A stretch of 64,000 nt of DNA, taken from an uncultured Elusimicrobia bacterium. Lineage in GTDB: Bacteria > Elusimicrobiota > Elusimicrobia > UBA1565 > UBA9628. The position numbers and the translations under genes are program-made. The stretch covers positions 1,086,378 to 1,150,377 of the forward strand of contig CBDIQC010000001.1 of the NCBI GenBank assembly GCA_965283875.1, given 5' to 3'. Below, in pieces: positions 12,759 through 60,269 of this stretch. How positions within the stretch are numbered: the first letter of the stretch is position 1; every line of letters starts with the position of its first letter. The notes under the pieces are model-generated. The model was not told the DNA's origin and ran no database searches. It worked only from the letters and a program-made list of their open reading frames with translations.

Positions 12759-12765
12759 GAGCCTT

Positions 12766-19711: not shown

Positions 19712-19737
19712 GGACGCGCGACAGGAGGATCAACGAC

Positions 19738-20202
19738 ATGGGTCCCGAGCGCCAGGACGTGCAGAAAACGACGCCGTCGGGCTTGACCTTCGAGCAGTTC
19801 ATCAAGGACGTGGCCTCGAAGGCCAAGCTCAACGTGATGGTGAAGGGCCCCGAGATGGTCGTGGTCCCCTGGGACATCTCCGAGGGTCGTAAGCAGAACA
19901 CGTTCGTGCGCCCGCTCGGCACCACCGGCATCGGGCTCATCATCTCCTTCTTCTCCCCCACCCGCAAGATCGTCACCGGCTCGGAACTCGACCTCGCCGC
20001 CGCGCTCGACATGCTGCGCAAAAACGCGCGCATCCCGCACGGCGCCTGGGCCATCGCCAGCGTCATGGGCGAGGAGTACCTGGGCGTGCAGGACACCCAG
20101 CTCGCCCACACCATGCAGCCCGACGAGTTCTACGCGTCCGCGCTCGCGGTCGCCCGGCTGGCCGACGAGGCGGAGCAGAAGCTCGGGACCGACACCTTCT
20201 AG
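19738..20202 (+). CDS. YbjN-like (putative sensory-transduction regulator / T3SS-chaperone-like fold) protein
   Basis: 154 aa soluble; overall pattern resembles YbjN domain; low certainty. Confidence 0.5.
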   Translation: MGPERQDVQKTTPSGLTFEQFIKDVASKAKLNVMVKGPEMVVVPWDISEGRKQNTFVRPLGTTGIGLIISFFSPTRKIVTGSELDLAAALDMLRKNARIPHGAWAIASVMGEEYLGVQDTQLAHTMQPDEFYASALAVARLADEAEQKLGTDTF

Positions 20203-23221: not shown

Positions 23222-23280
23222 CGACTAAGCTGAGTGCCAGGTCAACTAAGCCAGGGGCCTGTCCCCCAGCTTAGTTGGAC
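23222..23280. repeat. copy R (inverted) of the palindromic element; overlaps pepN stop codon
   Basis: reverse complement of 23221-23280 = gtccaactaagctgggggacaggcccctggcttagttgacctggcactcagcttagtcga, about 45/52 identical to copy L. Confidence 0.6.
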
Positions 23281-26482: not shown

Positions 26483-29400
26483 ATGATCAAGCGTTCCCTT
26501 TCCCTCCTTATCGCCCTCCTTCTCACCAACCTTCCCGCCGCGGCCGCCGTCACCGTCGGCTCCACCGTCAAAACCTCCCGCGTCGGCGCCGCCGCGACCG
26601 CCGGCGCCGCCAACGCCGGCGCCGGCTTGGGCCTCGTCGCGCCCGCCGTCGGCCTGACCCCTTCGCTGCCCCTCGCCCCGGCCCCCGCCTTGCTCGCCAT
26701 CTCCCGCGTCGAAGCCGGTTCGCCCGACGCCGTGCGGCTGCTCGCCGCCGACGCCGCCCCGGCGGCCGCCTTCGTCGCCGCCGTCGCCGCGCGCCCCGCT
26801 TTGCTCGCCGACGCCGCCGTGCGCGCCGGCGCCGTCTCCGCCCTCGGTGAAGCCGCCGTCGTCCGCCTCGAAGCCGCCGCCGCCTCGTTGTCGGCCCGCG
26901 CGACGACCGACCCCGCCCTCGACGCCGCGTTGACCACGTTGCGCCGCGAGACCCCCGTGGTCTCCCCCGCCAAGGCCCAGGACGCGCTCGCGCGCGTCGC
27001 CCGCGAGCTCGGCGAGATGACGGCCGCCGCCGACGCGCCCGCGCCTTCCGCCGCCCCCGTCGCCGCCCTCAAACCCGCGGCGCGCCGCCCGGGCGCCCTG
27101 CGCCGCTTCGCCATCGCCGCGCTGGCCGCGATGACCCTCTCGCAGGCCGTGCCCGCCGTCTCTCTCGCGCAGGAACACGTCCAGGCGCCCGTGACCGCCG
27201 TCTCCGTCCAGCTCGGCGACCTGCTCGCCCAGGCCGGGCAGCGCCAGGCCGACTACGTCGAGTTCCGCACCGCCGACGACCTCGTCGCGCGCTGGGACGC
27301 CGACACCCATCTTTACGTGAACGGCGACGTCGGCCTCGACCGCGCGGCCCTGCGCCGCCTGGCCGCCTTCCTCGCCGATAAACACTGGACCGTCGTGCTC
27401 GTCCAGGACGGCTCCGGCTTCCGCTGGACCGACGCGCAGGGCCGCACGCACCATGGCGACGTCGCGCTCGAATACGCGACCGGCCAGGGCATCTTCGCCA
27501 AAGGCGGCTTCACCGGCCAAGTGAACGCGGCCACCGGCCAGCGCGACGGCTCCATCATCACCATCGTGCTCCAGCAGCGCGTGCTGCTGCTGCGCAACTC
27601 CGAGGCGCAGAAGACCCGCGGCCTCGACGGCGAGACCCAGTTCCGCGGCAACCTCGACCAGTGGGCCGTCTCCAACATGCGCAACGGCGGCGACCTCTAC
27701 GGCGCCGTGACCGAGACCGTCGAGAACGTCGATCGACTTCTCGCGCAGGCCATCGCCTCCGAGCAGGCCACCGCCGCGACCGCGCTCGCCGAAGCAAAAT
27801 CCCTCCTCTCGCAGTACGAGACCGCTCGCTCCGGCTTCGTCGGCCGCCACCCCGCCGCGACCGTCGGCCGCGCCGACGTCTCCGCCGCGCGCCGCGCCGT
27901 GGCCGAGGCCGAAGCCCTCATCGCCCAGCGCCAGACCGGCCGCGCCGCGACCGTCGCCAACGGCGTCGTGCGCGACCTGCGCTCCGCCGTCGAGCAGATG
28001 AACGGGTTCGACCGCGCCGCGACGTCGGCCGCGGAACGCCTCGCGACCGCGCGCGCCGAGCTCGACGCGCTCGACCGCGCCGCCGCCGCGTACCGCTCGT
28101 CGCACCGCGACGCCTCCGGCGACCTGGCGCGCCCCGGCGTGACCGCCTGGCGCGAGACCCTCGCCGCGGCCGCCCGCCAGCAGGCCGCCGACCCGCGCGC
28201 CGCCGAAGCGACGGCCGCGAGCGTGCTCAACGAGGTGCGCGCCGTCTCCGCCGCCTTGGCCGCCCACCCGTCGGGCGAGCGCCTGATTTCCGAAGCCCGC
28301 GAGCTTCAGGGCTCGCTCGCCGGCCGCCTGCGCGCGGGCGAAGCCCAGCCCCAGCTCACCGCCGCCGCGCAGGCCCTGCGCGAGGCCGCCTCCGCTCACG
28401 AGAACGGCGCCTCGGCCTGGTCCGCGCAGCTCGAGACCGCCAAAACCTCGCTCGCCGAGGCCGAACGCGTCATCGACGCCGCCGACGCCGCGGCCCGGAC
28501 CAAGCTCATCATGTTCTGGGTGTTCAACGTCCTCGGCGGCCTGCTGACCTTGGGCGCGCTCGCCTTCCTCAACCGCCGCGCCGCCCGCGCCGGCCGCAAG
28601 GCCGAGGAAGCGCTGACGGAGTGGGACGGCATCCTCGAGAAGAAGCTCGAGGCCATCTACGGCGGGTCTAAGCCGGGCGAGGCCCTTAATAGCCTCGAAG
28701 CCAAGATCGAAGCCTACGTCGGCCCGACCACGGGCGAGAAGTCGCGCGGCTGGGTCGGCGACACGGCGACGCTGACGGCCGCCATCCGCAAGGACTCCGG
28801 CTACGCCAAGCTCCTGCTCGCCAAGGCGCGTTCCGTGCACGACGAGGCGACCGCGCTGGTGCGCCCGAAGGCGTGGACCACGCTCGGCTGGTGGCGCAAC
28901 CTCGTGTGGCCTTCGGGCTACGCGCTCGCGGAGCGCAAGCTCTCCACCGAGCCCGTCGAGTTCAAGCCCGAGGACGGCCTGCTCGACGCCGCCGGCAAGA
29001 AGTCCGACTGGCGCGACGACCTCTACGGCGAGACCGAGAGCTACAAGCCCTTCAAGCTGCCGTTCAAGGACCTCATGGCGCAGTTCAACGCCAGCGCCAA
29101 GTCCGCCGTCGATGCGGTCACCCGCCTCGAATACGCGGTGACCCAGTCCGGCTCCGTGTTCGACGCGCTCGACGGGAAGATCGCCGCGGCCGCCAAGACG
29201 CGGGCCGGCCTCGTCGTCGCCGACGGCCTGTTCGCCGCGGCCGCCCTCTACGAGAAGGCCCTGCCCGCCGCGAGCGAGCAGGTCAAGACCTCCCGCGTCA
29301 CCGCCCAGAAGGACCCCATCACCGGCATCTACGGCGGCGGCGCCGAAGCCACGCGCATCGTCGAGGACGCCGAGGCTCTCGTGGCCATGCTGACGAAGGC

Positions 29401-31189
29401 GCGGACCGGCTCCTTGGCCGCGGCCGACGCCGCGGCCCTGACCATCGCCGCCAACGCGGTGGAGAACGGCTGGATCGCCGACGACAAGAAGAAGCTCTCG
29501 GCCAAAGCCGACAAGATCGCCGCCGAGACCGCGACGACGGCCGTGTCCGAACGCGTCGCCGAGCTGTCGCTCGAGCTCACCGCGCTCGCCGTGAAAGCCG
29601 CGGACATCGCCAAAGGCGCCGAGGCGCTCACCGCCCTGCGCAAGAGCGTGGACGCCACCGAGACCGCGACGGCCGCCGCCCGCGCGACCATCGGCGCCGC
29701 CCTCGGCCTGCCCGTCGAGAAGATGCTCGTCGAGAAGGGCTCCAACCCCACCGAGTTCGTCGCCACCGCCCGCGAGTTCGCGGAGAAGACGGACGCCCTG
29801 CTCGGCAAAGGCAAACTCGCCGAAGCCAAGGAAGCGTTCGCCTCGGCCGAGATCGCCGCGCGCGCCGCGGCGGCCGTCGTGGCCGCCGGCCTCGAATCCC
29901 TGCGCAGCCACTCCGCCGTCGAGACCGCCCGCCGCGCCGAGACCGAACGCCTCGAAGGCCTCGTGCCCGACCGCCAGCGCGTGCTCGCGTCCATCGAGCG
30001 CGACTTCGCGGCCTCCGTGCTCGCGCTCAACGCGGGCGACGCCGCCCACCCCAACTCCAACGGCACCGTGAAGGACAACGTGGATGAGGCCGAGGCCGCG
30101 CTGTCGGCCGCGACGACGAAGCGCGAGCAGGCCCTGCGCGCGTTCACCGAGGGCAAGGTCATCTCCGCCGCCGACCTCCTCTCCCAGGTCGCCGCGCACC
30201 AGGCCATCGCCCAGCACCGCCTCGACGAGATCGCCGAGAAGCGGACGCGCCTGGACGCCGCCGTCGCCGCCAACAAGTCCCTGCGCGAGAAGCTCGAGGC
30301 GAAGGTCCTCGAATACAAGCGCACCGTCGTCGGTGACCGCCGCACGATGAAGCCGACGCTCAAGACCTACGACGCCGCCGCGCGCGGCCTGGCCGAAGCC
30401 TCCGCGCAGATCGACGCCGCCCAGGGCGACCCGTTCAAGGCCGCCGCCGCGCTCGCGGCCGCGACCGCCGCCCTCGAGCAGGTCTGGGTGTCGGCCCGCA
30501 ACGACTTCGACGCCTACGCCGAGGTCGAACGCAGCCTGCAGGCCGCCTACAACCAGCTCGGCGCGGCCGGCGCGCTCGCCAAGCAGGCGCAAGGCGACAA
30601 CACCGCCGACAGCCCGGCCATCACCGCGGCCTACCGCGAGCTGTCCGCCCTCGAGACCGCCTACCGCTCCGCGGTGGACGCGGCCAAGGGCGAACACGGC
30701 GACTGGAACGCGCTCGACCGCGAATCCGACCGCATCACCAACGAAGCGGCCCACGTGGCCGCCTCGCTCAAGGGCGAGCTCGCCGCCGCCGCGTCGGCCA
30801 CCAGCGCGGTGTCCTCCGCCGCGTCGAAGGTGCGCGAGGCCACGAACTGGTCCGGCTCCTACGGCGTCTATATCCCGGGCTCCCCGGGCGCCTCCCAGCT
30901 CGACAACGCGCGCGCCGCGCTGAGCCGGGGCGACTACCAGGGCGCCATCAGCTCCGCCGAAAGCGCGCGCCGCGCCGCCGCGTCGGCCATCGCCACGGCC
31001 GAGGCCGAGGTGGAGCGCCACCGCGAGGAGGAGCGCCGCCGGCGCCAGCGCGAGGAAGAAGAGCGCCGCCGCCGACAACAGGAAGAAGAGGACCGCCGCC
31101 GCTCGTCGAGCAGCTCCAGCTCGGGCTCCGGCTCCGGCGGCTCGTCGTGGGGCGGCTCGAGCTCCGGCTCCGGCCGGTCGGGCTGGTAA
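26483..31189 (+). CDS. giant (1568 aa) Ala-rich secreted/membrane protein with putative TPM-like domain, central TM helix, coiled-coil C-terminal half and Gly/Ser-rich ...SGW tail
   Basis: signal peptide MIKRSLSLLIALLLTNLPAAAA; region ~aa 270-370 (LDRAALRRLAAFLADKHWTVVLVQ...DGSIITIVLQQRVLLL) resembles TPM/YgcG fold; TM LIMFWVFNVLGGLLTLGALAFL; tail EEERRRRQ...SSSSGSGSGGSSWGGSSSGSGRSGW. Confidence 0.6.
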   Translation: MIKRSLSLLIALLLTNLPAAAAVTVGSTVKTSRVGAAATAGAANAGAGLGLVAPAVGLTPSLPLAPAPALLAISRVEAGSPDAVRLLAADAAPAAAFVAAVAARPALLADAAVRAGAVSALGEAAVVRLEAAAASLSARATTDPALDAALTTLRRETPVVSPAKAQDALARVARELGEMTAAADAPAPSAAPVAALKPAARRPGALRRFAIAALAAMTLSQAVPAVSLAQEHVQAPVTAVSVQLGDLLAQAGQRQADYVEFRTADDLVARWDADTHLYVNGDVGLDRAALRRLAAFLADKHWTVVLVQDGSGFRWTDAQGRTHHGDVALEYATGQGIFAKGGFTGQVNAATGQRDGSIITIVLQQRVLLLRNSEAQKTRGLDGETQFRGNLDQWAVSNMRNGGDLYGAVTETVENVDRLLAQAIASEQATAATALAEAKSLLSQYETARSGFVGRHPAATVGRADVSAARRAVAEAEALIAQRQTGRAATVANGVVRDLRSAVEQMNGFDRAATSAAERLATARAELDALDRAAAAYRSSHRDASGDLARPGVTAWRETLAAAARQQAADPRAAEATAASVLNEVRAVSAALAAHPSGERLISEARELQGSLAGRLRAGEAQPQLTAAAQALREAASAHENGASAWSAQLETAKTSLAEAERVIDAADAAARTKLIMFWVFNVLGGLLTLGALAFLNRRAARAGRKAEEALTEWDGILEKKLEAIYGGSKPGEALNSLEAKIEAYVGPTTGEKSRGWVGDTATLTAAIRKDSGYAKLLLAKARSVHDEATALVRPKAWTTLGWWRNLVWPSGYALAERKLSTEPVEFKPEDGLLDAAGKKSDWRDDLYGETESYKPFKLPFKDLMAQFNASAKSAVDAVTRLEYAVTQSGSVFDALDGKIAAAAKTRAGLVVADGLFAAAALYEKALPAASEQVKTSRVTAQKDPITGIYGGGAEATRIVEDAEALVAMLTKARTGSLAAADAAALTIAANAVENGWIADDKKKLSAKADKIAAETATTAVSERVAELSLELTALAVKAADIAKGAEALTALRKSVDATETATAAARATIGAALGLPVEKMLVEKGSNPTEFVATAREFAEKTDALLGKGKLAEAKEAFASAEIAARAAAAVVAAGLESLRSHSAVETARRAETERLEGLVPDRQRVLASIERDFAASVLALNAGDAAHPNSNGTVKDNVDEAEAALSAATTKREQALRAFTEGKVISAADLLSQVAAHQAIAQHRLDEIAEKRTRLDAAVAANKSLREKLEAKVLEYKRTVVGDRRTMKPTLKTYDAAARGLAEASAQIDAAQGDPFKAAAALAAATAALEQVWVSARNDFDAYAEVERSLQAAYNQLGAAGALAKQAQGDNTADSPAITAAYRELSALETAYRSAVDAAKGEHGDWNALDRESDRITNEAAHVAASLKGELAAAASATSAVSSAASKVREATNWSGSYGVYIPGSPGASQLDNARAALSRGDYQGAISSAESARRAAASAIATAEAEVERHREEERRRRQREEEERRRRQQEEEDRRRSSSSSSSGSGSGGSSWGGSSSGSGRSGW

Positions 31190-31193: not shown

Positions 31194-32963
31194 TTGCTGA
31201 TCCGGCTCGTCGCGCTCGCCGTCGTCGCCCTGGGGCTCAGCCCCGCGGCGGCGAGCGTGCGCGCGGTCCGGCCCGTCGCCGCGGCTTCTTCCGTTCGTCC
31301 CGTCGTTTTACCCGTCGTGCCGTTCGCCCTCGACCTCGCGCCGTCCGCCGGCATCCGGGCCGCTCTCACGCCGACGCTCCGCGCGCCCAACGACGCGCCC
31401 AAGTCGGCGTCCCAACTGCGCGCCGAGGCCGCCGATGCCGTGGCTCAATGGCGCGCAAGCCGTGCTCCGGCGACCGCCGTCGCTGCCGCCGCGCCCGTCG
31501 CCGCCGTTAACGTCGCCCCGCTCACGCCGGCCGAAGCCATCGCCACCGCGCAGACGAGCGGCCAGGCGCTGTCGCGCCTGGTCGAACTAGGAGTCATCAA
31601 ACCCCAGGACATCCCCGAAGGCGAGACCGACCGCGTCGCCCTCCTTAAAAGGGTCTGGGACGGCGTTTCCGCGAAGCTGACCTCCGACGTCCTGCCGGTC
31701 GATGCCTCCTGGGCCGTGCCCGCCATCACCGTCAAACGCGACGGCAAAACCTACCTCGTGCACGGCGTCGCCCACGGCGAGCTGTACCCGCCGAACCGCC
31801 GCCAGGTGGCGCGCCTCGTGGCCCAGATCGAGAAAAACGGCCACGCCTTGCTCTCCGAGCAGAACCTGCCCGCGCATTACGGCTTCGCCTACGGCCAGGA
31901 GACTATGGACCAGGCGGTCGATCGCCACGGCGTGCCGGCGCGCGTCACCGACGCGGCCGGCGGTCCGGCCTCCGGCGGCATCGCCGCGGTGCACGCCGTG
32001 CTGCGCTGGGCCGCGCTCGGCGGGACGGGTTACGCCTGGCTGCGCGCGGCGCTTTCCCCGACCGACCCGCTGGTCTGGGCGCTGGCCGTCGGCGTCTCGC
32101 TCGGCCTGTGGCTGCTCGCCCGCGGCCTGCAGCCCCTCAACCGCCTCGCGTTGCTTTCGGCCGCGCGCGACGCCGAGCGCCTCGGCTCCAAAGACCTCGC
32201 CGCCCACCTGCGTCGCGAAGCGCGCGCCTTCTTCGGCCCGCGCGGCGTGAAGGCCGAGGACATCCTGCGCCTGCACCTGCCGCCGGGACCGGGCGCGGCG
32301 TCCGATTCGTTGTCCCCCCGCTCATCGGCCATCGCGGGCGCCGCGCTCGCCGCCTCCGCCTCGGTCGTGCACGTGCTGGTCGGCTACCGCCACGCCGCCG
32401 AGATCGCTTGGCGCCTGGCCGGCGCGGACGCCGCCGTCGGGACCGCGGCGCGGGCGACCGGAGCCTCCGAGCGCAACGGCGGTTCGGTGACGAAGCCCTT
32501 GTTCTTCGGCGTGCTCGGCGCCGTCGCTTTGGCCTTCGGGCTCGCTCAGATGAACACGGGCTACATGCTCGCCGGCGGCTTCTGGCTGGGGTCGGCCCTG
32601 TGGGACTACCTTAATAAGGACAAACCCGCCGAAGCCATGACGGCGCGCGCGCTGCTCGGCTACCCGCCCCATGTCTATCTGCTGATGGCCGCCGCCTTCG
32701 TCACCGCCGTGGTCGCCCCCGTCGCCGCGCCGCTCGCGATGCTCGGGCTCGCCGCCTGGTCCGCGCTGACGAGCAAGACGGCCCGGGAATACTTCGACGC
32801 CTCCCAGGCGTTATTCACCCTTTCCATCGGCCTCGGCTTCGGGGCCCTGCTGGCGTACGGCTTGCACGGCTTCGACATCGGCTTCATCGCCGCCGGCGTC
32901 TCCGCCGTGCTGGCCAACATCATCGGCAAACTCATGAAATTCGCCGCGATCCGGAAGTCCTAG
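31194..32963 (+). CDS. TraB/GumN-like protein with C-terminal polytopic membrane domain (TTG start)
   Basis: signal/TM N-terminus, KTYLVHGVAHGE resembles TraB/GumN (Y)LxGTxH motif, about 6 C-terminal TM helices. Confidence 0.4.
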   Translation: MLIRLVALAVVALGLSPAAASVRAVRPVAAASSVRPVVLPVVPFALDLAPSAGIRAALTPTLRAPNDAPKSASQLRAEAADAVAQWRASRAPATAVAAAAPVAAVNVAPLTPAEAIATAQTSGQALSRLVELGVIKPQDIPEGETDRVALLKRVWDGVSAKLTSDVLPVDASWAVPAITVKRDGKTYLVHGVAHGELYPPNRRQVARLVAQIEKNGHALLSEQNLPAHYGFAYGQETMDQAVDRHGVPARVTDAAGGPASGGIAAVHAVLRWAALGGTGYAWLRAALSPTDPLVWALAVGVSLGLWLLARGLQPLNRLALLSAARDAERLGSKDLAAHLRREARAFFGPRGVKAEDILRLHLPPGPGAASDSLSPRSSAIAGAALAASASVVHVLVGYRHAAEIAWRLAGADAAVGTAARATGASERNGGSVTKPLFFGVLGAVALAFGLAQMNTGYMLAGGFWLGSALWDYLNKDKPAEAMTARALLGYPPHVYLLMAAAFVTAVVAPVAAPLAMLGLAAWSALTSKTAREYFDASQALFTLSIGLGFGALLAYGLHGFDIGFIAAGVSAVLANIIGKLMKFAAIRKS

Positions 32964-33093
32964 GCCCGCCGTCCCGAGGACCCGGATTGGCTAGGCCCAA
33001 AGAATTCGCGAAATGACCCCTGTGGTCTCATTCGCCCGAACGACGGTCCGCGATAGAATCAGGATTCGACGTACCCAAATCAGTGGAGGCCTA

Positions 33094-36000
33094 ATGCTTA
33101 AGAAGTCCCTTGCGACGACCATCTCCGCCGCGCTTATCCTCACCGGCCCCGGCCGCGCCGCCGTCTCCGCCGCCGTCAATGTGGCCCGCCCCGTCGCGGC
33201 GCCCCGCCTGACCACCCCTCTCGTAACCGCTTACGGCGCGCCGCGCATGGCGCCCCTGTCCACGAACCTGCTGACCGCGTCCGGCGCCCGCCTCGCGCCC
33301 GCGTTCCCGGCCCCCAACGCCGCGCCCGCCGCCTCCGTCATCAACGGCAACGTCGCGACGCCCGCCGGCGCCCCCGTCGCCGCGCCCGCCCCGGCCGACG
33401 CCCCGACCGCTCTCGGCTCCGTGTCCGTCGCCGCCGAAGCCGTCTCCGCTCCGAACGCTTCCCCCGCCGCCCAGACCGGCGCGCTCGACGGCCTCTACGA
33501 AGGCGCCGTGCGCTCCGATGACGCCGGCGACGTGCTCGGCGGCGTTTCCGCCGGCTCCGCGCGCCTGGCGCCCGTCAGCGCGGCCCCGGCCTCGGCCCGC
33601 GCGTCGGTTCCCTCCGCCAAAAACGGCGGACTGCTGCTCGAAGTCGGCATCGGCGCCGCGGTCATCACCGTGATCGCCCTCGTCTCCAAACCTTTCCGCG
33701 ACATCCTCGCCCGCCTGTGGAACGTGACGCTCGGCCGCCTCTCCATCTTCGCCAAGAAGGCCGAGACCCCCGAGGTGCTCGCCCAGCGCATCGTGGACCA
33801 GCTCAACGCCGCCAAACCCGTCTATAACCGCAAGGTCCAGGAAGCCTCCACCCTCGTCGAGAAGCTGAAGCTCCAGATTGATTCTGAAAAGGCGAAAGTT
33901 GCTGATTTGGAAACCAGCATCACCGCCCTGCTCTCCGACTCCGACCCGGCCAACGACACCATGGCGGCCGGCCTCATCAACCAGCAGAAGACGCTCGCCG
34001 GCTCCATCGCGACCTCCGAGGAGCAGCTCAAGCTCTCCGAAGTCACGCTCCAGGACATCAAGGACGAGCGCACCCGTTTCTTCGCCGAGCGCGAGGAGAC
34101 CATCGCCAAGATCAACGCCAAGCTGACCCAGGCCAAGGCCGCCGAAATCCGCAAACAAATGGCCGAGCTCAAGGGCGGCTTCCAGATCGGCGATCTTAAG
34201 GACAACCTCGACCGCCTCGACCAGGCCGTCAACGATAAGATCGCCGACGCCAACGGCACGGCCGACTCCGTCGCCTCCAACCCCGACGAGATCCTCAAGA
34301 AGGCCAAGGACTCGGTCCGCAACAACGAGGCCCTCGCCGAAATCGAGCGCCGCAAGAAGGAGATCGCCGAGAAGGCCGCTCAGAAGAACGGCGGCGCCAT
34401 CGGCCAGATGACCTGGGTCGGGATCGGAGCCGCGACGTTAATCGCCGTCGGAATGATCTACGGCTCGGTGTTCACGATCGGCGCCGCCGTCGCGGCGTTC
34501 GCGGTCACGACGCTTTACGCCGTCGCCACCAAGCGGGCCTCCAGCGCGGCCGCTCCGGCTCGCGACCTGACCATGACCGAAGTCCAGGTCCTCAACGTGG
34601 TCGGCATCGCCGTCTCCATTGGCGCCGGTTTCTACTTCGACGCCATCCTGCTGGGCTTGCTCGGCACCTTCGTCGCCCCCATCCCCGTCATCGTGGGCTA
34701 CGTGCTCCTGGAGAACCTGTCCGGCAACAAGGTGAACATGCCGGGCTTCCGCTTCGCCCCCAGCTTCAAGTGGAACGGCAAACCCCAGGACCCGTCCGAT
34801 AAAAACGGTGGCGACGTCTTGACCATCGCCGGCGCCGCCCTGGCCGTCGTCGCGGTCGCCGCCGTCGCCTCCAAATCGTTCCGCGACATCCTCGCCCGCC
34901 TGTGGAACGTGACGCTCGGCCGCCTGTCCATCTTCGCCAAGAAGGCCGAGACGCCAGAGGTGCTCGCCCAGCGCATCATCGACCAGCTCAACGCCGCCAA
35001 GCCCCTCTACAACCGCAAGGTCGCCGACGCCTCCACCTTGGTCGAGAGCCTCAAGCTCCAGATCCAGTCGCAGAAGGAGAAGTCCGCCGAGCTCGACGCC
35101 AACGTGACCGCGCTGCTCTCCGACGCGGACGCGAGCAACGACCTGATGGCCGCGACCCTCCTCAACCAGAAGAAGACCATCGACGCGTCCACCGCCGCCT
35201 CAGAGGAGCAGCTCAAGATCTCCGAGGTCACCCTCCAGAACATCAAAGACGAGCGCACCTCCTTCTTCGCCGAGCGCGAGGAGACCATCGCCAAGATCAA
35301 CGCCAAGCTGACCCAGGCGAAGGCCGCCGAGATCCGCAAGCAGATGGCCGAGCTCAAGGGCGGCTTCCAGATCGGCGACCTCAAGGACAACCTCGACCGC
35401 CTCGACCAGGCCGTCAACGACAAGATCGCCGACGCCAACGGCGCCGCCGACTCCGTCGCCTCCAACCCCGACGAGATCCTCAAGAAGGCCAAGGACTCGG
35501 TGCGCAACTCCGACGCGCTCGCCGAGATCGAACGCCGCAAGAAGGCCATCGCCGAAGCCGCCGCCAAGAAGAACGGCGGCGACGTCTTGACCATCGCCGG
35601 CGTCGCCCTGGCCGTCGTCGCGGTCGCCGCCGTCGCCTCCAAATCGTTCCGCGACATCCTCGCCCGCCTGTGGAACGTGACGCTCGGCCGCCTCTCCATC
35701 TTCGCCAAGAAGGCCGAGACCCCCGAGGTGCTCGCCCAGCGCATCGTGGACCAGCTCAACGCGGCCAAACCCGTCTATAACCGCAAAGTTCAGGAAGCTT
35801 CTACGCTCGTTGAAAAGCTCCGGCTCCAAATCGCTAGCGAAAGGGCCAAAGTCGCCGACCTCGAAACCAGCATCACCGCCTTGCTCTCCGACTCCGACCC
35901 GGCCAACGACACCATGGCGGCCGGCCTCATCAACCAGCAGAAGACGCTCGCCGGCTCCATCGCCGCGTCCGAGGAGCAGCTCGCGCTTTCCGAGGTCACC

Positions 36001-38163
36001 CTCCAGAACATCAAGGACGAGCGCACCTCCTTCTTCGCCGAGCGCGAAGAGACCATCGCCAAGATTAACGCCAAGCTGACCCAGGCGAAGGCCGCCGAGA
36101 TCCGCAAGCAGATGGCCGAGCTCAAGGGCGGCTTCCAGATCGGCGATCTTAAGGACAACCTCGACCGCCTCGACCAGGCCGTCAACGACAAAATCGCCGA
36201 CGCCAACGGCGCCGCCGACTCCGTCGCCTCCAACCCCGACGAGATCCTCAAGAAGGCCAAGGATTCGGTCCGCAACAACGAGGCCCTCGCCGAAATCGAG
36301 CGCCGCAAGAAGGAGATCGCCGAGAAGGCCGCGCAGAAGAACGGCGGCGCCATCTCCCAGGCGACCGCGCTCAGCCTCTTCGGTAAAGCCATCGCGGTCG
36401 GCTTCGCGCTCGCGATGCCCATCGTCGCGTCCCTCGTCATCGCCGGTGCCGGCCTGCTCTCCTTGGTCCTGCCTTCCGAGAACGGCCGCAAGGTCGGCCG
36501 CCAGCTCGCCGTCATCGGCCTGCTGACCCTCGTGGTCGGCGCGGTGCCGCTGCTGCTGGGCGTCAACATGGGCTTCCTGGGCATCGCCACCTTCGGCGGC
36601 TCCTTCGGCTTCCTCATCCCCGGCGGCCTCGCGTTGATGGGCGGCATCCTCGCCAACCTCAAGGCCAACAAGTCGGACGCCTCCGTCGCGGCGTCGGTGC
36701 CCCAGGCCACCGCGCCCGTCGTGGTCGCGGCCCCGACGGCTCCTTCGACTCCCGTCGAGACCGCCGCGCCGTCGAAGGGCGCTTCGTTCTCCATCAAGCC
36801 GCTCCTCGACATCATGTCGCGGGTGTGGAACGCCTTGCTCGGCGCCCTCGGCCTGGGCGTGCGCAAGCTCGAAACTCCGGAAATCCTCGCCCAGCGCGTC
36901 ATCGACCAGCTCAACGCCGCCAAGCTCGCCTACAACAACAAGGTCAAGGACGCGTCCACCTTGGTCGAGAGCCTCAAGCTCCAGATCGGCAAGCAGAAGT
37001 CGGACTCGGCCAAGCTCGACGAGGCCGTGACCATCCTGCTGTCGGACTCCGACACGGCCAACGACCTCCAGGCCGCCGGCATCCTCAACCAGAAGAAGAC
37101 GCTCGACGCCTCCACGGCCGCGACCGAGGAGCAGCTCGCCATCGCCCAGCAGGGCCTGCAGGGCATCAAGGAAGACCGGGCCCGCTTCTTCGCCGAGCGC
37201 GAGGAGACGATGGCCAAGATCACCGCCAAGCTGACCCAGGCCAAGGCCGCCGAGATCCGCGCCCAGATGGCCGCGCTTAAGGGCGGCTTCTCCATCGGCG
37301 ACTTGAAAGACAACCTCGACCGCCTCGACTCCGCCGTCAACGACCGCGTCGCCGGCGCCAACGGCGCGGCCGACTCCGTCGCCTCCAACCCCGACGAGAT
37401 TCTCAAGAAGGCCAAAGACGCCGCCCGTTCCTCCGAGGTCAACGACGAGCTCGAGCGCCGCAAGCGCGAGATCGCCGAAGCCGCCGCCAAGAAAAACGGC
37501 GGGCAGATTCCCGGCCTCGTCTGGGCCGGCGCGCTCGCAGGCCTGGCGCTCCAGGTCGCGGCCGTGATGACCATCGGCTGGACCGCGGCGCTGCCGCTGC
37601 TCGGCGTGATGGGTTGGTCGGGCCTGGCGGCCGGCGTCGTCAGCTATTTCGTTCCCGACACCCGCACCGGCGCCATCGCCGGCGCCATCGCGGGCGCCAT
37701 CCTCGTCGCGCTTTCGGCCGTCGCCTCGCCCGAGATGCTCCTGCTCGGCGCGGCCTCCGGCTCCTTCGTGGGCTGGTTCGGCGCGCACGGCAACAATCAG
37801 CCCGGCATCGGCGGCTTCATCGGCGCCACGTTCGGCGGCATGATGGTCGGCATGACGCTCCCGGCCTGGCTGGGCGCGCTCGGCGCCAAGAAGCTGCTCG
37901 ACAACGCCGGAAACCGCAACGGCGGCTCGGTGACGTTGCTGCCCGTGCTGGCCGGCGCCACCGGCCTGGCGGCGTTAGCCGCCCTCATCGGCGGCGGCAT
38001 CGCGGGGTTCGTCATCGGCGCGGCGCTCGGCTACGTCTATCTCGAGCACCTCTCGGCCCATAAGAACAGCCGCGACATCAACGACCTCGTCTTCGGCGTC
38101 ATCGGCTACGGCGCCATCGGCGCCATCATCACCGCCATCGGCTCCGTCCTCTACTTCATCTAA
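33094..38163 (+). CDS. giant (~1690 aa) membrane protein with four tandem PspA/IM30 (Vipp1/LiaH, ESCRT-III-like) domains
   Basis: RBS ggagg 33085-89; signal peptide; four ~245-aa units each preceded by a TM helix and each containing (I)LARLWNV..G.LSIFAKKAETPEVLAQRI(V/I)DQLNAAK... matching the PspA N-terminal consensus (f.r.wd....LdkaEdPekmldQ.irdm) followed by long coiled coil; multi-TM Gly-rich C-terminus. Confidence 0.7.
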   Translation: MLKKSLATTISAALILTGPGRAAVSAAVNVARPVAAPRLTTPLVTAYGAPRMAPLSTNLLTASGARLAPAFPAPNAAPAASVINGNVATPAGAPVAAPAPADAPTALGSVSVAAEAVSAPNASPAAQTGALDGLYEGAVRSDDAGDVLGGVSAGSARLAPVSAAPASARASVPSAKNGGLLLEVGIGAAVITVIALVSKPFRDILARLWNVTLGRLSIFAKKAETPEVLAQRIVDQLNAAKPVYNRKVQEASTLVEKLKLQIDSEKAKVADLETSITALLSDSDPANDTMAAGLINQQKTLAGSIATSEEQLKLSEVTLQDIKDERTRFFAEREETIAKINAKLTQAKAAEIRKQMAELKGGFQIGDLKDNLDRLDQAVNDKIADANGTADSVASNPDEILKKAKDSVRNNEALAEIERRKKEIAEKAAQKNGGAIGQMTWVGIGAATLIAVGMIYGSVFTIGAAVAAFAVTTLYAVATKRASSAAAPARDLTMTEVQVLNVVGIAVSIGAGFYFDAILLGLLGTFVAPIPVIVGYVLLENLSGNKVNMPGFRFAPSFKWNGKPQDPSDKNGGDVLTIAGAALAVVAVAAVASKSFRDILARLWNVTLGRLSIFAKKAETPEVLAQRIIDQLNAAKPLYNRKVADASTLVESLKLQIQSQKEKSAELDANVTALLSDADASNDLMAATLLNQKKTIDASTAASEEQLKISEVTLQNIKDERTSFFAEREETIAKINAKLTQAKAAEIRKQMAELKGGFQIGDLKDNLDRLDQAVNDKIADANGAADSVASNPDEILKKAKDSVRNSDALAEIERRKKAIAEAAAKKNGGDVLTIAGVALAVVAVAAVASKSFRDILARLWNVTLGRLSIFAKKAETPEVLAQRIVDQLNAAKPVYNRKVQEASTLVEKLRLQIASERAKVADLETSITALLSDSDPANDTMAAGLINQQKTLAGSIAASEEQLALSEVTLQNIKDERTSFFAEREETIAKINAKLTQAKAAEIRKQMAELKGGFQIGDLKDNLDRLDQAVNDKIADANGAADSVASNPDEILKKAKDSVRNNEALAEIERRKKEIAEKAAQKNGGAISQATALSLFGKAIAVGFALAMPIVASLVIAGAGLLSLVLPSENGRKVGRQLAVIGLLTLVVGAVPLLLGVNMGFLGIATFGGSFGFLIPGGLALMGGILANLKANKSDASVAASVPQATAPVVVAAPTAPSTPVETAAPSKGASFSIKPLLDIMSRVWNALLGALGLGVRKLETPEILAQRVIDQLNAAKLAYNNKVKDASTLVESLKLQIGKQKSDSAKLDEAVTILLSDSDTANDLQAAGILNQKKTLDASTAATEEQLAIAQQGLQGIKEDRARFFAEREETMAKITAKLTQAKAAEIRAQMAALKGGFSIGDLKDNLDRLDSAVNDRVAGANGAADSVASNPDEILKKAKDAARSSEVNDELERRKREIAEAAAKKNGGQIPGLVWAGALAGLALQVAAVMTIGWTAALPLLGVMGWSGLAAGVVSYFVPDTRTGAIAGAIAGAILVALSAVASPEMLLLGAASGSFVGWFGAHGNNQPGIGGFIGATFGGMMVGMTLPAWLGALGAKKLLDNAGNRNGGSVTLLPVLAGATGLAALAALIGGGIAGFVIGAALGYVYLEHLSAHKNSRDINDLVFGVIGYGAIGAIITAIGSVLYFI
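33688..37500 (+). repeat. four ~750-bp intragenic tandem repeats encoding the PspA-like units (units 1 and 3 >90% nt identity)
   Basis: direct comparison of 33691-34260 with 35644-36210; also produces repeated antisense ORFs in the track. Confidence 0.8.
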
Positions 38164-38181
38164 CAACGTCGCTTCGAACCG

Positions 38182-38218
38182 AAGGCCCCGCGCTCCCACG
38201 CGGGGCCTTCTTCTTTTC
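38182..38218 (+). terminator. rho-independent terminator after the tetra-PspA gene
   Basis: aaggccccgcg-ctccca-cgcggggcctt followed by cttcttttc. Confidence 0.75.
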
Positions 38219-38284: not shown

Positions 38285-39166
38285 TTAGAAACGCCAGCCG
38301 AGGTCGAAGCGGTGGGCGCGGCCGAGCTCGCCCATCGGCTTGATGGCGTAATCGACGCGCAGCGCGCCGAACTCGACGCCCAGGCCGAAGGCGAGGCCTT
38401 TGGCCGCATCGAGGCTGGACCCGCCGCCGACGGCGCCTTTGGTTGAGTAACCGCCGCGCAGCGCCACGCCGGGTCGCGCCGTCCACTCCGCGCCGAAGCC
38501 GGCGTCGTTTTGTCCCACGCGCGGGCGGTATTCGTAGTCGAGCCCCAGGCGCAACGCGTCGCGTTTCCAAGACAGGCCCGCGGCCGTAGCCAGCGGCAGG
38601 TCGTTAGTCTGGTCTCGGTAACGCAGGCCGGGGCCGAGGTTGCGTACGGCCGCGGCGGCCGTGAAGTCGCCGATGACTCGCGAGAAGCCGACGTCGGCCG
38701 CGAGGCCTTGCGCCTCGGCCTCGGCGATGTGCGAGCGCAGATATTTGACCGTCGCGCCCAACGAACCCGCGTCGTGCTTGCGAGCGTAGCCGAATGCCAA
38801 CGCAGCGTCCGAGGCGCCGAAATTCCCGGTGGGACGCCCCGCCGCGTCGCGCCCAGACAGGTTTCCGTGGCTGAGATAGGTGAACGCCGCGCCGATGGCG
38901 CCGCCCATAGCGGGGTGTGCGTAGCCGCCGTAGTCCAGGCGCGTGGAGTCTGCTAGTTCGGCGTGCGTGAACACGGCGTCGCGTTTCTCAAGCACCGCGA
39001 TTCCCGCGGGATTCCAGTAAATCGCCGTAGCGTCGGCGGCCATCGCCGTGCCCGCGCCGCCCAACGCCACGGCGCGTGCGCCCACGGGCAATTCCAGAAA
39101 CGAAGCCGTCTCCGCGGCGCGAAGACCGGCCGGCGCGAACAGAAGGGCGAGAAGCAAGCCCCTCAT
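38285..39166 (-). CDS. T9SS-associated outer-membrane beta-barrel protein, PorV/PorP(SprF) family-like
   Basis: signal peptide; N-terminal FLELPVGARAVALGGAGTAMAADATAIYWNPAGIA (NPAG motif), C-terminal aromatic residue (…DLGWRF); ATGA-coupled directly downstream of the CTD-cargo gene. Confidence 0.55.
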   Translation of the reverse strand: MRGLLLALLFAPAGLRAAETASFLELPVGARAVALGGAGTAMAADATAIYWNPAGIAVLEKRDAVFTHAELADSTRLDYGGYAHPAMGGAIGAAFTYLSHGNLSGRDAAGRPTGNFGASDAALAFGYARKHDAGSLGATVKYLRSHIAEAEAQGLAADVGFSRVIGDFTAAAAVRNLGPGLRYRDQTNDLPLATAAGLSWKRDALRLGLDYEYRPRVGQNDAGFGAEWTARPGVALRGGYSTKGAVGGGSSLDAAKGLAFGLGVEFGALRVDYAIKPMGELGRAHRFDLGWRF

Positions 39167-42100
39167 TTGATCACCCCGACTTTACCGCGCGTCGTCACGT
39201 CGCCTCGACCGGCCCGTTTGGCGACGATGACGTAGTGATAGACGCCTGAGGCGACGCCCGACACGTTCCAAACGTGGTCGTAAGTGTGTTGTGCGCCTTT
39301 GCCGTTGCCGTCATCGAAGGAGGCCGACAAGGCGAAGTTGGAAGACGAGTGGATTTTGCGGCCCGCCAAGTCGTACACGCGTACTTCCACCGAATCCGCC
39401 AGGCCCGGCTGCACGCGGAAGGTGACCGCCGCGCCCGAGCGCGATGGATTGGGGAAGGCGTAGTGGTCGCGCAAGCCGAAGTCATCGACGGCTGCAACGC
39501 CGATGCCGGGGGCCAGGGGCTGGTAAAGCGAGAAATGGTCGGTGCGGGCGATGAGCACACGACGGGCCGCATCTACCTGGGTGGGCAGCGGCGTCCAGGT
39601 CCGCGCCGCCGGATCGAAGTAGTGGACGGCGAGGGTCGCCGGCGGGCCGCCGGGGAACAGTGACGGGTCGTAGGGCAGTTCGATGGTGACAGGAACGGAA
39701 AAACGCGTGCCCTCCGGGCCGAACTCGATGGGCTCGCCTGCCGCGCCCAGGCCTTCTCGCGCGAGCGCGGCCGCGCGAGCCGCCTTGTGGCTGTCGCGGT
39801 CGCGAGCGACCGTGATGACGGCGTCGGCTTCGAGCGCGCCGGGCGGCACGGTCACGGCGGCCTGCGCGGGCGTCTCGACGCGTCCGCCCTCCTCGGCGGG
39901 CAAGTTGAGACCGCCTTCGAAGTTCATATCGGGTTGGGCCGACAGCGCCGAGAAACCCGACAAGGCGGCGGGGCCGAAGGTCGTGCCCTTGGTGAACTCG
40001 ACGGGCGCGCTTGAAACGGAGCCGCCGGCGGGATGGCGAGCGACGATCACCTCATGCGGACCGTCGGGTAGGCTTGCGGGCACGGTCCAGCGGATCGTGG
40101 CGTCGTTCCATACCGACACGGTCACCGTGCTGCCGCCCACGAGCAGGCGCGTGGCCGCCCCCGCGTAAGGTCCGAAGCCATGCCCGGTCACGGTGACCAC
40201 GGTCCCCGTCGGCCCGAAAGACGGCGTGATGCTCGATATAGTCGGCAGGAGCACCGCAAAGTCGAACGGCGCGGCAGCCGAGACGGCCGCCCCCACCGCG
40301 CGTTCGACAACGACGCTCACCGTGCCCGTTGATAAGACGCCGGGCACCGTGCCCTTGATAGTCGAATCATTCCACACCGAGATGGGCGCGACCACGCCGC
40401 CGAACTTAACGCGCGTATTGGCGCCCGCGTAGGGACCGAAAGCCGTACCTGTGAGGGTGAACGGCGCGCCGATAGGCGCCGAAGACGGCTCGACGCTTTG
40501 AACGTCGAGCGCCAGCACCGTGAAGGTCGAGGCCTCGCTGTCGGTCGGCGTCCCGGCCTGTAGGCGGCGCACCAGCAACGGGTGCTCGCCGGCTTCAAGC
40601 GCCGGAACAGTGCCTTTGATGGTCGTGTCGTTCCACACCGACACGGCCGCCGTGACCGTTCCGAACAAAACGAGCGTATTGGCCCCGCCGTAGGTCCCGA
40701 AGCCCGCGCCCGTGAGGGTAAAGGGCACGCCGATGGCGCCCGACGACGGGGTCAAAGCGTTCACGGTCGGGGTCAACACTTCAAAATAGACGGTGTTGCT
40801 GGCCTGTAGGCCCGTGCCCGCTCGGCGTTCGAGCCACAACGGGTGCGCGCCCGCGGGAAGGGTCAGAACCGTCCCGGTGATGGTCGTGTCGTTCCACACC
40901 GACACCGGTACTGTCGCCCCGCCCAGAAGCAAACGCGTGTTAGTCACGGCGTAGGGACCAAATCCCGCGCCGTTTAAGGTGAAGCTCACACCCGCCGGGC
41001 CTGAAGACGGCGTGGGCGCCGTCAAAACGAGCTCGGTCAAGGTGAACGCTCCTGCGTTGCTCATGGACAGTCCTGAGCCCGAGACGCGTTCGACCGTGAC
41101 GGCGTGCGCGCCCGGCGTCAGCAAGGGGATGGTGCCCGTGATGGTGGAGTCGTTCCACACCGACACCGGCGCCGTCGTGCCGCTAAACAACACCCGTGTG
41201 TTGGCCCCGCCGTAAGCTCCGAATCCAGCGCCCGTGACGGTGAAGGGCACGCCCACGGGCCCGGAAGACGGCGTGACCGAATTTATGAACTGGCCCACGA
41301 CTTGGAACTCGACGGTGGCGGAACGCGACAACGCGCCGGCGTAGGCGCGTTCGACAAGCAACGGATAAGTCCCCGTGGGCAGCGACCCCGGCACCGTGCC
41401 CTTGATGGTCGCGTCGTTCCACACCGACACGGCCGCCGTCGCCCCGCCAAGCAAGACCCGCGTATTGGCCCCGCCGTACGGGCCGAAGCCGTGTCCGGCC
41501 AATGTGAAAATCGCTCCGATGGCGCCCGATGAAGGACTCAAAGACGCGATGACGGGCGTGAGCACCTCGAAATACGCGGTATTACTGGACTGCAGGCCCG
41601 CGCCCGAGCGGCGTTCGATCCACAACGACTGAATGCCCGCTGCGACGGCCGGAACCACACCCGAAATGACCGCATCGTTCCATACCGACACGGCCACGGT
41701 CGCCCCGCCCAGCAAAAGCCGCGTGTTGGCGCCCGCGTAAGGCCCGAAACCGGAGCCCGTCAAGGTGAACGGCGCGCCAATCGGCGCTGAAGACGGCACG
41801 GGCGGGGGCAGCGCCAACTCGGTTAAAGTGAAGGTCGTAGGCAGGCTTAACTCCTCGCCGCCGCCTTGCGCGCGGCGCACCACCACCGCGTAAGCCCCCG
41901 TGGAGAGAGACGGCACCGTGCCCTTGATGGTCGTGTCGTTCCACACCGATACGGCGGCCGCCGTCGAGCCGAAGAAGACCTGGGTGTTCGCCCCGCCATA
42001 GGCGCCGAACCCCGCCCCCGTCAGAGTGAAGGGTACGCCGATTGGACCCGTCGAAGGCGTGAGCGCGGAGACGGCGATGCCCGAGACTTGGAAATACACC

Positions 42101-45871: not shown

Positions 45872-46622
45872 ATGGCTAAGCCTCCTCTTGAACCGTCACC
45901 GCGAATCGCCGAGGTCGTACACATCGAAGACGATCCGGATTGGTCGAGCCTCGTCGGCCGATGGGTGCGGCAAATAAGGACTCACCTTCCATTCTGTCCG
46001 CTCCCGCGACGAGCTTAAAGCCTATCTGAGCCGCGTGGAGTCTGCGCCGCGCTGCGTCATCATCGACGCGGGCCTTGGCGCTGACAGCGGACTGGACCTT
46101 TGCGAGAGGCTCAAGGATTCTCCGAGCCTCCAGGCCGCTCCGATTATCGTGTTGACGGGGGGCGGCGTATCAAGCGATGAGTGTCTGAAACGCGGCGCCC
46201 TCCAAGTCGTTTTGAAGGACGGGCGGACAGAACAGTCCTTAAACGCGGTGCTGGGCGCGGTATTAGACCAGCATGAACGCTCGCGCGGTGTTGTGCAAGC
46301 GGGTGATTTGAACCTCGATCCGAGGGAGCGCACGGTTACGGCGACTAACGGTCGAGCCGTCGTGTTGGCGCCAGGCCTATTCGCCGCTTTTATGAGACTG
46401 GTGTCGCTCACCCCGGAGACGGTTGCGGACATCGAGCTTTATACGGCCTTCATCGAGCGTCGTCCCTACGACAAGCGCGACCATGAGTTGTCCGTCAGGG
46501 GCACTCTTCGCAATTACGTCTCACGACTACGCGGCGAGTTGGGGCCGGTCATCGGCGCGCGCATCATGAGGCGTCCTGCCGGCTATGCGTACGTTCCGGC
46601 CAACCCCGTGCCGCGGCTATAG
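45872..46622 (+). CDS. OmpR-family (winged-helix) response regulator, receiver domain interrupted by frameshift near 45970-45980
   Basis: MAKPPLEPSPRIAEVVHIEDDPDW... (receiver start) runs into stop at 46017; continuation ...GLTFHSVRSRDELKAYLSRVESAPRCVIIDAGL... in another frame (stop at 45975 upstream) joins ORF 46035..46622 with trans_reg_C-like C-terminus. Confidence 0.55.
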
Positions 46623-46645
46623 CCGATTGATGTATTTGAAATTGA

Positions 46646-46674
46646 TTGACAGCCCCCGGGCGCGGGGCTATATA
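46646..46674 (+). promoter_or_regulatory. strong consensus-like sigma70 promoter TTGACA-17-TATATA directly upstream of RHS1; transcript would be leaderless or nearly so
   Basis: ttgaca 46646-51, tatata 46669-74, ATG 46684; the same ggggctatataggtgttcgcATG block recurs before RHS3 (56416-56437). Confidence 0.5.
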
Positions 46675-46683
46675 GGTGTTCGC

Positions 46684-60252: not shown

Positions 60253-60269
60253 CGCTTACGACGACATGC

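Follow-up and report, generated by a model that had tools for sequence, protein, structure and literature searches.

PspA, Vipp1 and ESCRT-III proteins are universal polymers of membrane repair and membrane remodeling, and the PspA/IM30/LiaH family (Pfam PF04012) forms the branch of the ESCRT-III superfamily found in bacteria and plastids. Classical members of this family are single-domain proteins of ~220-260 amino acids (aa), with neither a signal peptide nor a transmembrane (TM) helix, that are encoded together with PspF/B/C or LiaI/F. PspA, Vipp1 and LiaH are soluble proteins whose reversible recruitment depends on the amphipathic helix alpha0 or on small membrane partners (PspB/C, LiaI); in the LiaI-LiaH and PspB/PspC-PspA pairs, the PspA-family effector is kept at the membrane by small integral membrane proteins. 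In ESCRT-III, each subunit is a polypeptide of its own; assembly follows a set order, and Vps4 recycles the subunits. To our knowledge, all characterized PspA, Vipp1 and ESCRT-III proteins act from the cytoplasmic or stromal side. Here, we describe gene C, found on the forward strand (positions 33094-38163, stop included) of a 64,000-nucleotide stretch of DNA from an uncultured Elusimicrobia bacterium (the window), which encodes a 1,689-aa membrane protein with multiple PspA domains. With its signal-like N-terminus, three helices that abut alpha0, three multi-helix blocks and four domains, the product of gene C fails the description of a soluble, single-domain PspA and, given the signal, the membrane helices and the number of domains, should not be considered a typical member of the family.

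The four repeated units of the gene C protein were shown to be genuine, divergent, full-length PspA/IM30 domains of the ESCRT-III fold, as a preliminary description of the locus, made from the sequence alone, had proposed. The whole protein matched the Pfam PspA_IM30 profile in four stretches, with E=5e-26 and 92.1 bits (gathering score 33.9). When each unit was scanned singly, all four covered positions 2 to 217 or 218 of the 220-position profile. Unit 1 (33688-34395, aa 199-434; residue numbers are counted from the ATG at 33094) scored 35.3 bits over positions 2-217, unit 2 (34873-35580, aa 594-829) scored 37.5 bits over positions 2-218, unit 3 (35641-36348, aa 850-1085) scored 33.9 bits and unit 4 (36787-37503, aa 1232-1470), the divergent one, scored 32.3 bits over positions 2-217, slightly below the cut-off. 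No Snf7 match to Pfam was reported for the protein. Every unit has its own amphipathic alpha0, with a hydrophobic moment of 0.32-0.49, as compared with 0.41-0.50 for E. coli PspA and Synechocystis Vipp1, and, like PspA/IM30/LiaH proteins, continues with an 'ETPE' alpha0-alpha1 junction, a long alpha1/alpha2-3 hairpin and C-terminal helices. The AlphaFold2 model calculated for unit 3 and its surroundings (residues 826-1240) with a 9-sequence family alignment (mean predicted local distance difference test score, pLDDT, of 58), predicts an ESCRT-III-type hairpin. Its alpha1 and alpha2/3 have a pLDDT of 75-91, preceded by the hydrophobic helix h and alpha0 as separate helices and followed by three shorter helices (model residues 25-48, 52-107, 111-167, 172-187, 193-212 and 225-258). 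In a Foldseek comparison of this model with the PDB, the top 12 matches were all Vipp1/PspA assemblies (probability 1.0, TM-score of ~0.5 on the target, whole-chain alignments), with archaeal CdvB2 also listed, placing the predicted fold nearest to the Vipp1/PspA cryo-EM structures. The units have the helical-hairpin fold in common with ESCRT-III (Snf7/CHMP, CdvB) and presumably polymerize on membranes.

The stop-free frame around gene C spans 33013-38163 as a single open reading frame, in line with the one frame of ~1690 aa noted before. The true start is, on the sequence evidence, the ATG at 33094, since a GGAGG ribosome-binding site (Shine-Dalgarno sequence) lies 5 nt before it, since the orthologues have the common N-terminus MxKKSLA and since the product is identical to a 1,689-aa NCBI protein (P0001; P numbers refer to the proteins of relatives and L numbers to their loci) encoded on a 3.1-Mb contig. 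An intrinsic-terminator-like hairpin at 38181-38210 on the same strand (12-bp stem with 10 GC pairs, then a T-rich tail) marks the end of the operon.

The protein begins with a Sec-type signal-peptide-like sequence (MLKKSLATTISAALILTGPGRAAVSA|AV; 33094-33171, aa 1-26), recognized heuristically by two basic residues, an uncharged 16-aa core and small-x-small sites, and continues with an N-region (33172-33618, aa 27-175) with 42% Ala+Pro, no Pfam match and the family motif GALDGLYEG. Both elements had been described before, as a signal peptide and an Ala/Pro-rich spacer. After a KNGG junction (aa 176-179), the hydrophobic helix h1 (33631-33687, aa 180-198; Kyte-Doolittle (KD) score 2.39, summed Hessa score +0.5) directly abuts alpha0 of unit 1. 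Unit 1 is separated from unit 2 by the membrane cassettes A1 (aa 435-487) and A2 (aa 488-573, 'DLTMTE'), which together occupy 34396-34812, contain hydrophobic stretches at aa 441-479 and 497-540 and end in KNGG, and by helix h2 (34813-34872, aa 574-593; KD 2.40, Hessa -0.27). Units 2 and 3 are the only adjacent pair, with helix h3 (35581-35640, aa 830-849; KD 2.53, Hessa -0.69, hydrophobic moment 0.06) as the sole segment between them. Units 3 and 4 are parted by block B (36349-36669, aa 1086-1192), a conserved multi-helix membrane module of ~107 aa shared by the great majority of the multi-unit relatives, and by a 39-aa Ala/Pro-rich linker (36670-36786, aa 1193-1231; 44% Ala+Pro) whose position is likewise kept in relatives. 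The chain ends in a multi-helix block (37504-38160, aa 1471-1689) with 19% Gly, as expected from the Gly-rich multi-TM end reported initially, and the KKNGG linker reported with it was recovered as KNGG at the ends of six modules and as one RNGG inside this C-terminal block. When scanned separately, the segments between the units gave no Pfam match.

A hydrophobic helix of ~19-20 aa thus stands directly before units 1, 2 and 3 only, while unit 4 follows block B and the linker. The idea of one layout repeated four times in a row was therefore not borne out, as unit 4 has no such helix and as cassettes interrupt the array between units 1 and 2 and between units 3 and 4. Likewise, the individual membrane anchoring claimed for every unit can be retained for units 1-3, each with its own hydrophobic helix, and not for unit 4; for reasons given below, it is doubtful that h acts as a simple TM helix. 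Helix h is strongly hydrophobic, with a hydrophobic moment of ~0.05 and no amphipathic moment, and its summed Hessa scores across the family (-1.7 to +2.4) make it as TM-capable as the cassette helices of the same protein. Judged by hydrophobicity, an integral-membrane location of the gene C protein is supported.

The gene C family was shown to be small, with Elusimicrobiota as each taxon label. A word-indexed search of 5.8 billion proteins yielded 18 matches only, all of 970-1,689 aa, and the named ones among them were all labeled Elusimicrobiota or Elusimicrobia. A hidden Markov model of the unit, built here, detected 2-4 PspA units in each of these 18 long relatives, such that polypeptides with more than one PspA domain do occur outside the window. 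In an exhaustive HMMER search of 1.84 billion representatives, 66 proteins were found at E<=1e-3, of which ~13 had at least two matched units. One relative found in this way has 1,927 aa and three matched units, and ordinary ~250-aa PspAs reached E-values of 1e-12 to 1e-4 only. A pattern-limited scan of 185,579 species-representative genomes returned four loci, all in metagenome-assembled genomes of Elusimicrobiota. The orthologues have 2, 3 or 4 units in varying order, which speaks against a fixed tetramer and thus against the fixed stoichiometry that had been suggested for this protein. In a tree of the units, the main clade contains three orthologous types, namely the first unit, the h-bearing unit and the unit after block B, and unit 4 of gene C is orthologous to unit 4 of P0002. 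The units of the window protein, P0002, P0013 and P0016 cluster by protein, indicating homogenization. Two very different units are already present in P0018, the most divergent of the members.

At the DNA level, gene C contains four in-register repeat copies with spacings of 1185, 768 and 1155 nt. Over a 236-codon core, the identity between units 1 and 3 reaches 92.8% for DNA and 96.2% for protein (89.8% for DNA if the hydrophobic leader is included), so that the identity of more than 90% stated previously holds for the core. Unit 1 is 86.6% identical in DNA to unit 2, and unit 4 is 75-78% identical in DNA and 67-72% in aa to units 1-3. The synonymous divergence (dS) between units 1 and 3 is 0.26, and the ratio of non-synonymous to synonymous divergence (dN/dS) is 0.10, as compared with 0.30 in comparisons with unit 2 and ~0.55 in comparisons with unit 4; by these codon-based estimates, all units were shown to be under purifying selection. 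Identity between the units is mosaic, with units 2 and 3 matching exactly along h and alpha0 and units 1 and 3 doing so in other tracts, and this pattern points to gene conversion among units. When the array was first described as evolving by recent internal duplication or gene conversion, the second part was thus well chosen. A 'recent' duplication, by contrast, does not agree with a dS of 0.26 at a dN/dS of 0.10 or with unit types that are orthologous across genomes, from which the multi-unit state appears to be old.

Gene C is the last gene of an operon, with the order A-B-C being found in 8 of the 8 loci for which upstream sequence is available. The gap between A and B is 4 nt and that between B and C is 130 nt, and no convincing terminator was found between the genes. 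Gene A (26483-31189, forward strand; 1,568 aa), the first operon gene in 8/8 loci, belongs to a family of ~1,550-aa bitopic helical proteins. Its product comprises a signal-like N-terminus, a low-complexity region, a conserved alpha/beta domain, a helical region and a single TM helix (aa 675-697), after which ~870 mostly helical residues, an Arg/Glu-rich stretch and a Gly/Ser/Trp tail follow. Gene A gave no Pfam, NCBIfam or PDB-sequence match. A TPM domain, considered on account of the alpha/beta domain (aa 235-440) and the Gly-rich tail, was rejected, since five orthologues gave no Pfam TPM match at E up to 10 and a profile search of the PDB gave none. After the signal-like N-terminus and the low-complexity region, aa 201-231 of gene A (~27083-27175) form a second, internal signal-like stretch, RRPGALRRFAIAALAAMTLSQAVPAVSLAQE, that could represent an alternative start, a Tat-like motif or a membrane helix.

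Gene B (31194-32963, forward strand) encodes a 589-aa membrane protein with a signal-like N-terminus, a core that we tentatively consider TraB/TIKI-like, an RNGG junction (aa 427) and two cassettes. Six residues (H81, H85, E113, H284, H291 and E294) are invariant in 10 sequences of the gene B family, and a two-helix membrane insertion splits the TraB/TIKI-like domain. In the TraB/TIKI superfamily, conserved catalytic residues (2His/2Glu, a His-Glu pair) are required (PMC6254334). No Pfam TraB match was obtained for 10 gene B family members at E up to 10, and Foldseek against the PDB gave no support for TraB. A common N-terminal targeting module in A, B and C was also considered and rejected, as BLAST among the N-termini gave a best E of 0.23 and the common features are a signal-like sequence and low complexity only. 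An 'AL..LF(D/E)' motif nonetheless recurs in gene C N-regions and in some gene B orthologues. In gene C, the N-region motif AL(N/D)x(L/V/F)(Y/F)(D/E) reads GALDGLYEG (33469-33495, aa 126-134) and is kept in relatives down to distant single-unit proteins, and some gene B orthologues (L002, L004, P0029) have an 'LDALFDGS' version of it in their N-terminal portion; such a motif may be a shared site of periplasmic interaction. Upstream of gene A and divergent from it, an M1 aminopeptidase (23271-26276, reverse strand; TIGR02412 pepN, 3.5e-87) is present in 6 of the 8 operon loci (the window and L001-L005) and is treated here as a syntenic neighbor. Psp and Lia families were absent from the larger window frames scanned, which lie before 54.3 kb and after 60.2 kb, and, in distinction from ESCRT-III systems, the operon contains no AAA+ ATPase.

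The membrane modules of the family are shuffled as cassettes. The preliminary description mentions neither this shuffling nor the operon partners, nor what the signal peptide implies for sidedness. Cassette A2 separates units in the window protein, P0003 and P0009, is C-terminal in P0004 and is found on the gene B orthologues P0024 and P0026, while the two C-terminal cassettes of the window's gene B recur inside the gene C relatives P0015, P0017, P0006 and P0002. Block B is present in 20 relatives, where it is always followed by the Ala/Pro linker and the same unit type, and is absent from P0015 and from the TM-free P0051. The terminal cassette of gene C (C3) is common to P0002, P0042, P0005, P0010 and P0015, and the N-region opens the chain in about two dozen relatives, distant single-unit ones among them. 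At the module junctions, two central positions are Gly in 48/64 and 50/64 cases, respectively, with the remainder being Ala or Ser. All eight junctions of the window, that of gene B among them, have the sequence (K/R)NGG in synonymous codon variants, while xAGG is seen elsewhere in the family. This synonymous variation indicates that it is the residues, rather than a joint in the DNA, that are under selection.

Several individual relatives deserve mention. In P0003 (L004, 10001-14938), the multi-PspA chain ends in a Bax1-I/YccA-like seven-helix domain (PF01027). The fusion is unusual in that it joins two families related to membrane stress, and it offers a useful marker of topology. At L001 (12376-14901), the 1,310-aa P0012 and a following 324-aa gene annotated as 'PspA_IM30' together represent one four-unit gene, frameshifted in a hydrophobic helix by a sequencing error or as a pseudogene, in a complete-looking Elusimicrobiota genome of 3.8 Mb. 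This 324-aa gene had been a candidate for a gene split at junctions, as a sign of independent modules, and was rejected given the frameshift; the other short relatives are contig-end fragments. Small, apparently soluble inserts, such as '...VTSVYSAEFGVRVTLTDGADMAAAAEALRPWETKLGLPIEIV...', are found between cassettes in P0011 (aa ~830-957), P0033 (aa ~1130-1300), P0034 and P0017 (aa ~560-640) and at the C-terminus of P0016, and are absent from the window protein.

No description of this architecture was found in the literature, in agreement with the initial impression that the family had not been described. A survey of Psp proteins (Ravi et al. 2024, PMC11237479) gives, in the part available to us, the share of homologs with tandem PspA_IM30 repeats or fusions (<2%) only. 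The accessible portions of its text and supplement contain no signal-bearing, TM-interleaved multi-PspA protein, no Elusimicrobiota members and no A-B-C operon, and the entries 'PspA_IM30+PspA_IM30', 'SIG+PspA' and 'Elusimicrobia' are all absent from the supplement as seen; the nearest item there is a 'SIG+TM+Snf7' gene in a Bacteroidetes neighborhood. The four-PspA membrane architecture is rare, conserved in its lineage and apparently undescribed. As compared with PspA/IM30, the gene C family differs in having 2-4 domains per chain, a Sec-type signal, helices that abut alpha0, multi-helix cassettes and other, unannotated operon partners.

We consider it somewhat probable (roughly 55%) that the gene C protein is a permanently membrane-tethered, multivalent PspA scaffold that works together with proteins A and B. 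While in classical systems the anchors are supplied in trans, they would here be fused in cis, as the helix next to alpha0, block B and the other cassettes. By analogy with LiaI-LiaH and PspB/PspC-PspA, the cassettes and helix h could serve as effector anchors, with the difference that gene C unites anchor and effector covalently and repeats them; the cassettes show no Pfam similarity to PspB, PspC or LiaI. The fused anchors would hold several alpha0 helices and hairpins at the bilayer at a high local concentration, where the linked units might nucleate or join an ESCRT-III-like coat that stabilizes or shapes the cytoplasmic membrane. Proteins A and B would take part with this scaffold, and the number of units would be adjustable.

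Some points weigh against such a scaffold and need to be considered. Single units reach about the Pfam threshold only (32-37.5 bits), and no PDB sequence is recovered at E up to 1 with a profile made from all four units. The units are thus distant PspA relatives, and their structural link is taken from Pfam and from the comparison of folds, in which the Foldseek E-values are weak (0.004-0.08). The membrane blocks of the AlphaFold2 model have a pLDDT of <50, such that their helix counts are uncertain. No known Psp or Lia partner was found in the operon with Pfam or NCBIfam, and all family members come from uncultured genomes. In terms of topology, if helix h spans the membrane once, units 2 and 3 are placed on opposite sides of the membrane and block B takes opposite orientations in P0004 and P0007. 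The signal peptide, in turn, predicts export of those units that have no preceding helix, namely unit 1 of the main clade and all units of P0051. No single topology model meets all constraints from the orthologue comparison, the charges and the signal.

The question of block B can be followed in two relatives. P0007 has the order signal peptide (SP)-N-U1-B and P0004 the order SP-N-U1-h-U2-B, with block B sequences that are nearly identical. A helix h that spans once would invert block B between the two proteins, which is why its role as a simple TM helix is doubtful. One of three things must hold, i.e. h does not flip the chain (being monotopic or interfacial), the modules insert independently or block B tolerates both orientations. 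A two-span hairpin of h and alpha0 was also considered and is unlikely, as the Hessa sum of alpha0 (~+10, calculated by hand) is not TM-like and as alpha0 is the same with or without h. Block B was predicted by AlphaFold2 as three long helices, at a confidence (pLDDT <50) too low to choose between three and four spans. Charge counts read from the sequences favor a cytoplasmic position of the C-flank of block B, of the ends of A2 and of the N-terminus of the Bax1-I/YccA-like domain that P0003 carries behind its last unit. Together with an exported protein N-terminus, the last of these calls for an odd number of spans in between, and a constant orientation of A2 in P0003 as compared with P0004 and P0009 needs the opposite parity. 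From the positive charges that flank block B, unit 4 is most likely cytoplasmic, and unit 1 would be cytoplasmic if h1 were a stop-transfer sequence after an exported N-region.

An alternative that we regard as possible, although doubtful, is that the Sec signal is functional and that some or all units work on the periplasmic side of the inner membrane or at the outer membrane, on its inner face. The cassettes would then act as hairpin anchors, and block B may return the chain so that units coat both faces. A canonical Sec signal was recognized in 27 of the 33 N-terminally complete family members by a crude, strict heuristic, with most of the others being alike by eye, and proteins A and B also start with signal-like sequences. 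In main-clade proteins, no hydrophobic helix separates the signal from unit 1. In many relatives and in the window protein, however, the order is SP-N-h-PspA, a type I layout that places PspA in the cytoplasm, and h is hydrophobic enough for stop-transfer. If h does not flip the chain, on the other hand, the parity argument places window units 1-3 on the side of the exported N-region. P0051, a complete gene on an 89.7-kb contig that follows genes for ~1,540 and ~540 aa, as in the operon, encodes a signal, the N-region and two PspA units with no hydrophobic 19-mer beyond residue 30. If its signal works, the PspA units are exported, and P0051 thus suggests the existence of exported PspA domains. 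P0047 and P0049, two further candidates for TM-free exported PspA, were set aside since their contigs of 2.2-2.5 kb may be truncated, and P0051 (and, more cautiously, P0052) was used instead. Against export stand the Lys/Arg-rich flanks of block B and A2, which favor cytoplasmic ends, and the fusion of a P0003 unit to a Bax1-I/YccA-like domain with a strong positive-inside signal for a cytoplasmic N-terminus, as does the general knowledge that every characterized PspA, Vipp1 and ESCRT-III protein works from the cytoplasmic or stromal side. BdpA of Shewanella, a bacterial, BAR-domain-like helical protein that sculpts membranes, apparently bears a signal peptide and works outside the cytoplasm (PMC8687657). 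It offers a precedent and an analogue should the units be exported and is relevant only in that case; its fold and family are unrelated to PspA. In its most far-reaching and likewise tentative form, export would make the operon the first extracytoplasmic PspA/ESCRT-III branch, in which Sec-exported domains coat the periplasmic inner-membrane face, or both faces, stitched via block B, in multi-unit proteins, with maturation at the GG junctions by the TraB/TIKI-like partner being possible.

Less probable than a tethered scaffold or exported units, and in our view unlikely, is a polyprotein that is cleaved at the small-residue junctions, possibly by the TraB/TIKI-like protein B, freeing separate PspA proteins, helix-anchored or soluble, and small 2-4-helix membrane proteins, as functional analogues of LiaI or PspB/C, in a set ratio. 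Cleavage at the junctions is a prediction from the motif and the candidate hydrolase, whereas Gly-Gly would also serve well as a helix-breaking hinge where a helix meets a membrane segment. Specificity for GG is not known for any TIKI/TraB enzyme (RRSP cleaves at Tyr-Asp), and the fold assignment of gene B is weak given the negative Foldseek and Pfam results. Moreover, the linker that joins block B and unit 4 has no GG junction, and no genome was found in which the modules occur as separate genes split at the junctions.

Finally, although the gene is repetitive, the genome is probably metagenome-derived, the Pfam scores per unit are borderline and one relative (P0012) is frameshifted, it is very improbable that the array arose as an expansion or chimera in assembly, that the gene is a pseudogene or that the PspA matches are generic coiled-coil false positives, and an assembly artifact is unlikely in particular, because the longest identical tract between units is 116 nt, the gene contains no exact repeat of at least 120 nt and its units differ by 7-25% in DNA, because the frame is intact over 5 kb with dN/dS well below 1, because the same multi-unit design is found in independent assemblies from NCBI, JGI, ENA and Logan, and because the PspA profile matches are full and in register and the structural neighbors are Vipp1, PspA and CdvB2, not random coiled coils.

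Elsewhere in the window, further features were noted. The PspA operon is directly followed, on the other strand, by a gene for an outer-membrane protein weakly resembling PorV (38285-39166, reverse strand; 28.4 bits). The stop of this gene overlaps by 4 nt the start of a gene for a 2,194-aa protein (39163-45747, reverse strand) with 10 IPT/TIG domains and a weak ZU5-like match, which suggests a surface-protein pair of the type IX secretion system (T9SS) type. Four RHS-repeat/YD-shell genes that follow one another on the forward strand in the parts scanned, up to 54.3 kb and from 60.2 kb (46570-50154, 50751-54260, 60210-62477 and 62626-63999; PF05593, E 1e-64 to 1e-106), the last of which runs past the window end, lie where GC falls from ~70% to 57-62% and look like a horizontally acquired polymorphic-toxin array. 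On the same strand, a CHASE2-sensor adenylate/guanylate cyclase gene (10917-12755) is followed, 3 nt on, by an M48 peptidase gene (12759-14102), a possible envelope-signaling pair. Large open reading frames with coding-like GC content at third codon positions and no Pfam match lie at 4164-6401, 8923-10569 and 18837-20129 on the reverse strand and at 14106-15677 on the forward strand.

The gene C family links 2-4 PspA domains covalently to membrane anchors and thereby offers a natural test of ESCRT-III-type polymerization, in contrast to the studied PspA, Vipp1 and ESCRT-III members, which are separate soluble subunits recruited on demand on the cytoplasmic side. With this family, the effects of subunit linkage, valency and permanent tethering on polymerization and on the generation of curvature are open to test. 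The A-B-C operon, moreover, points to two uncharacterized partners of an Elusimicrobiota envelope system. The sidedness of the PspA units is the most valuable and the most testable aspect of gene C. The family-wide signal and the helix-free P0051 raise the possibility of PspA-type polymers outside the cytoplasm, where they would act without nucleotide-driven disassembly, and an extracytoplasmic PspA, if true, would change the view of the mechanism and evolution of the superfamily.

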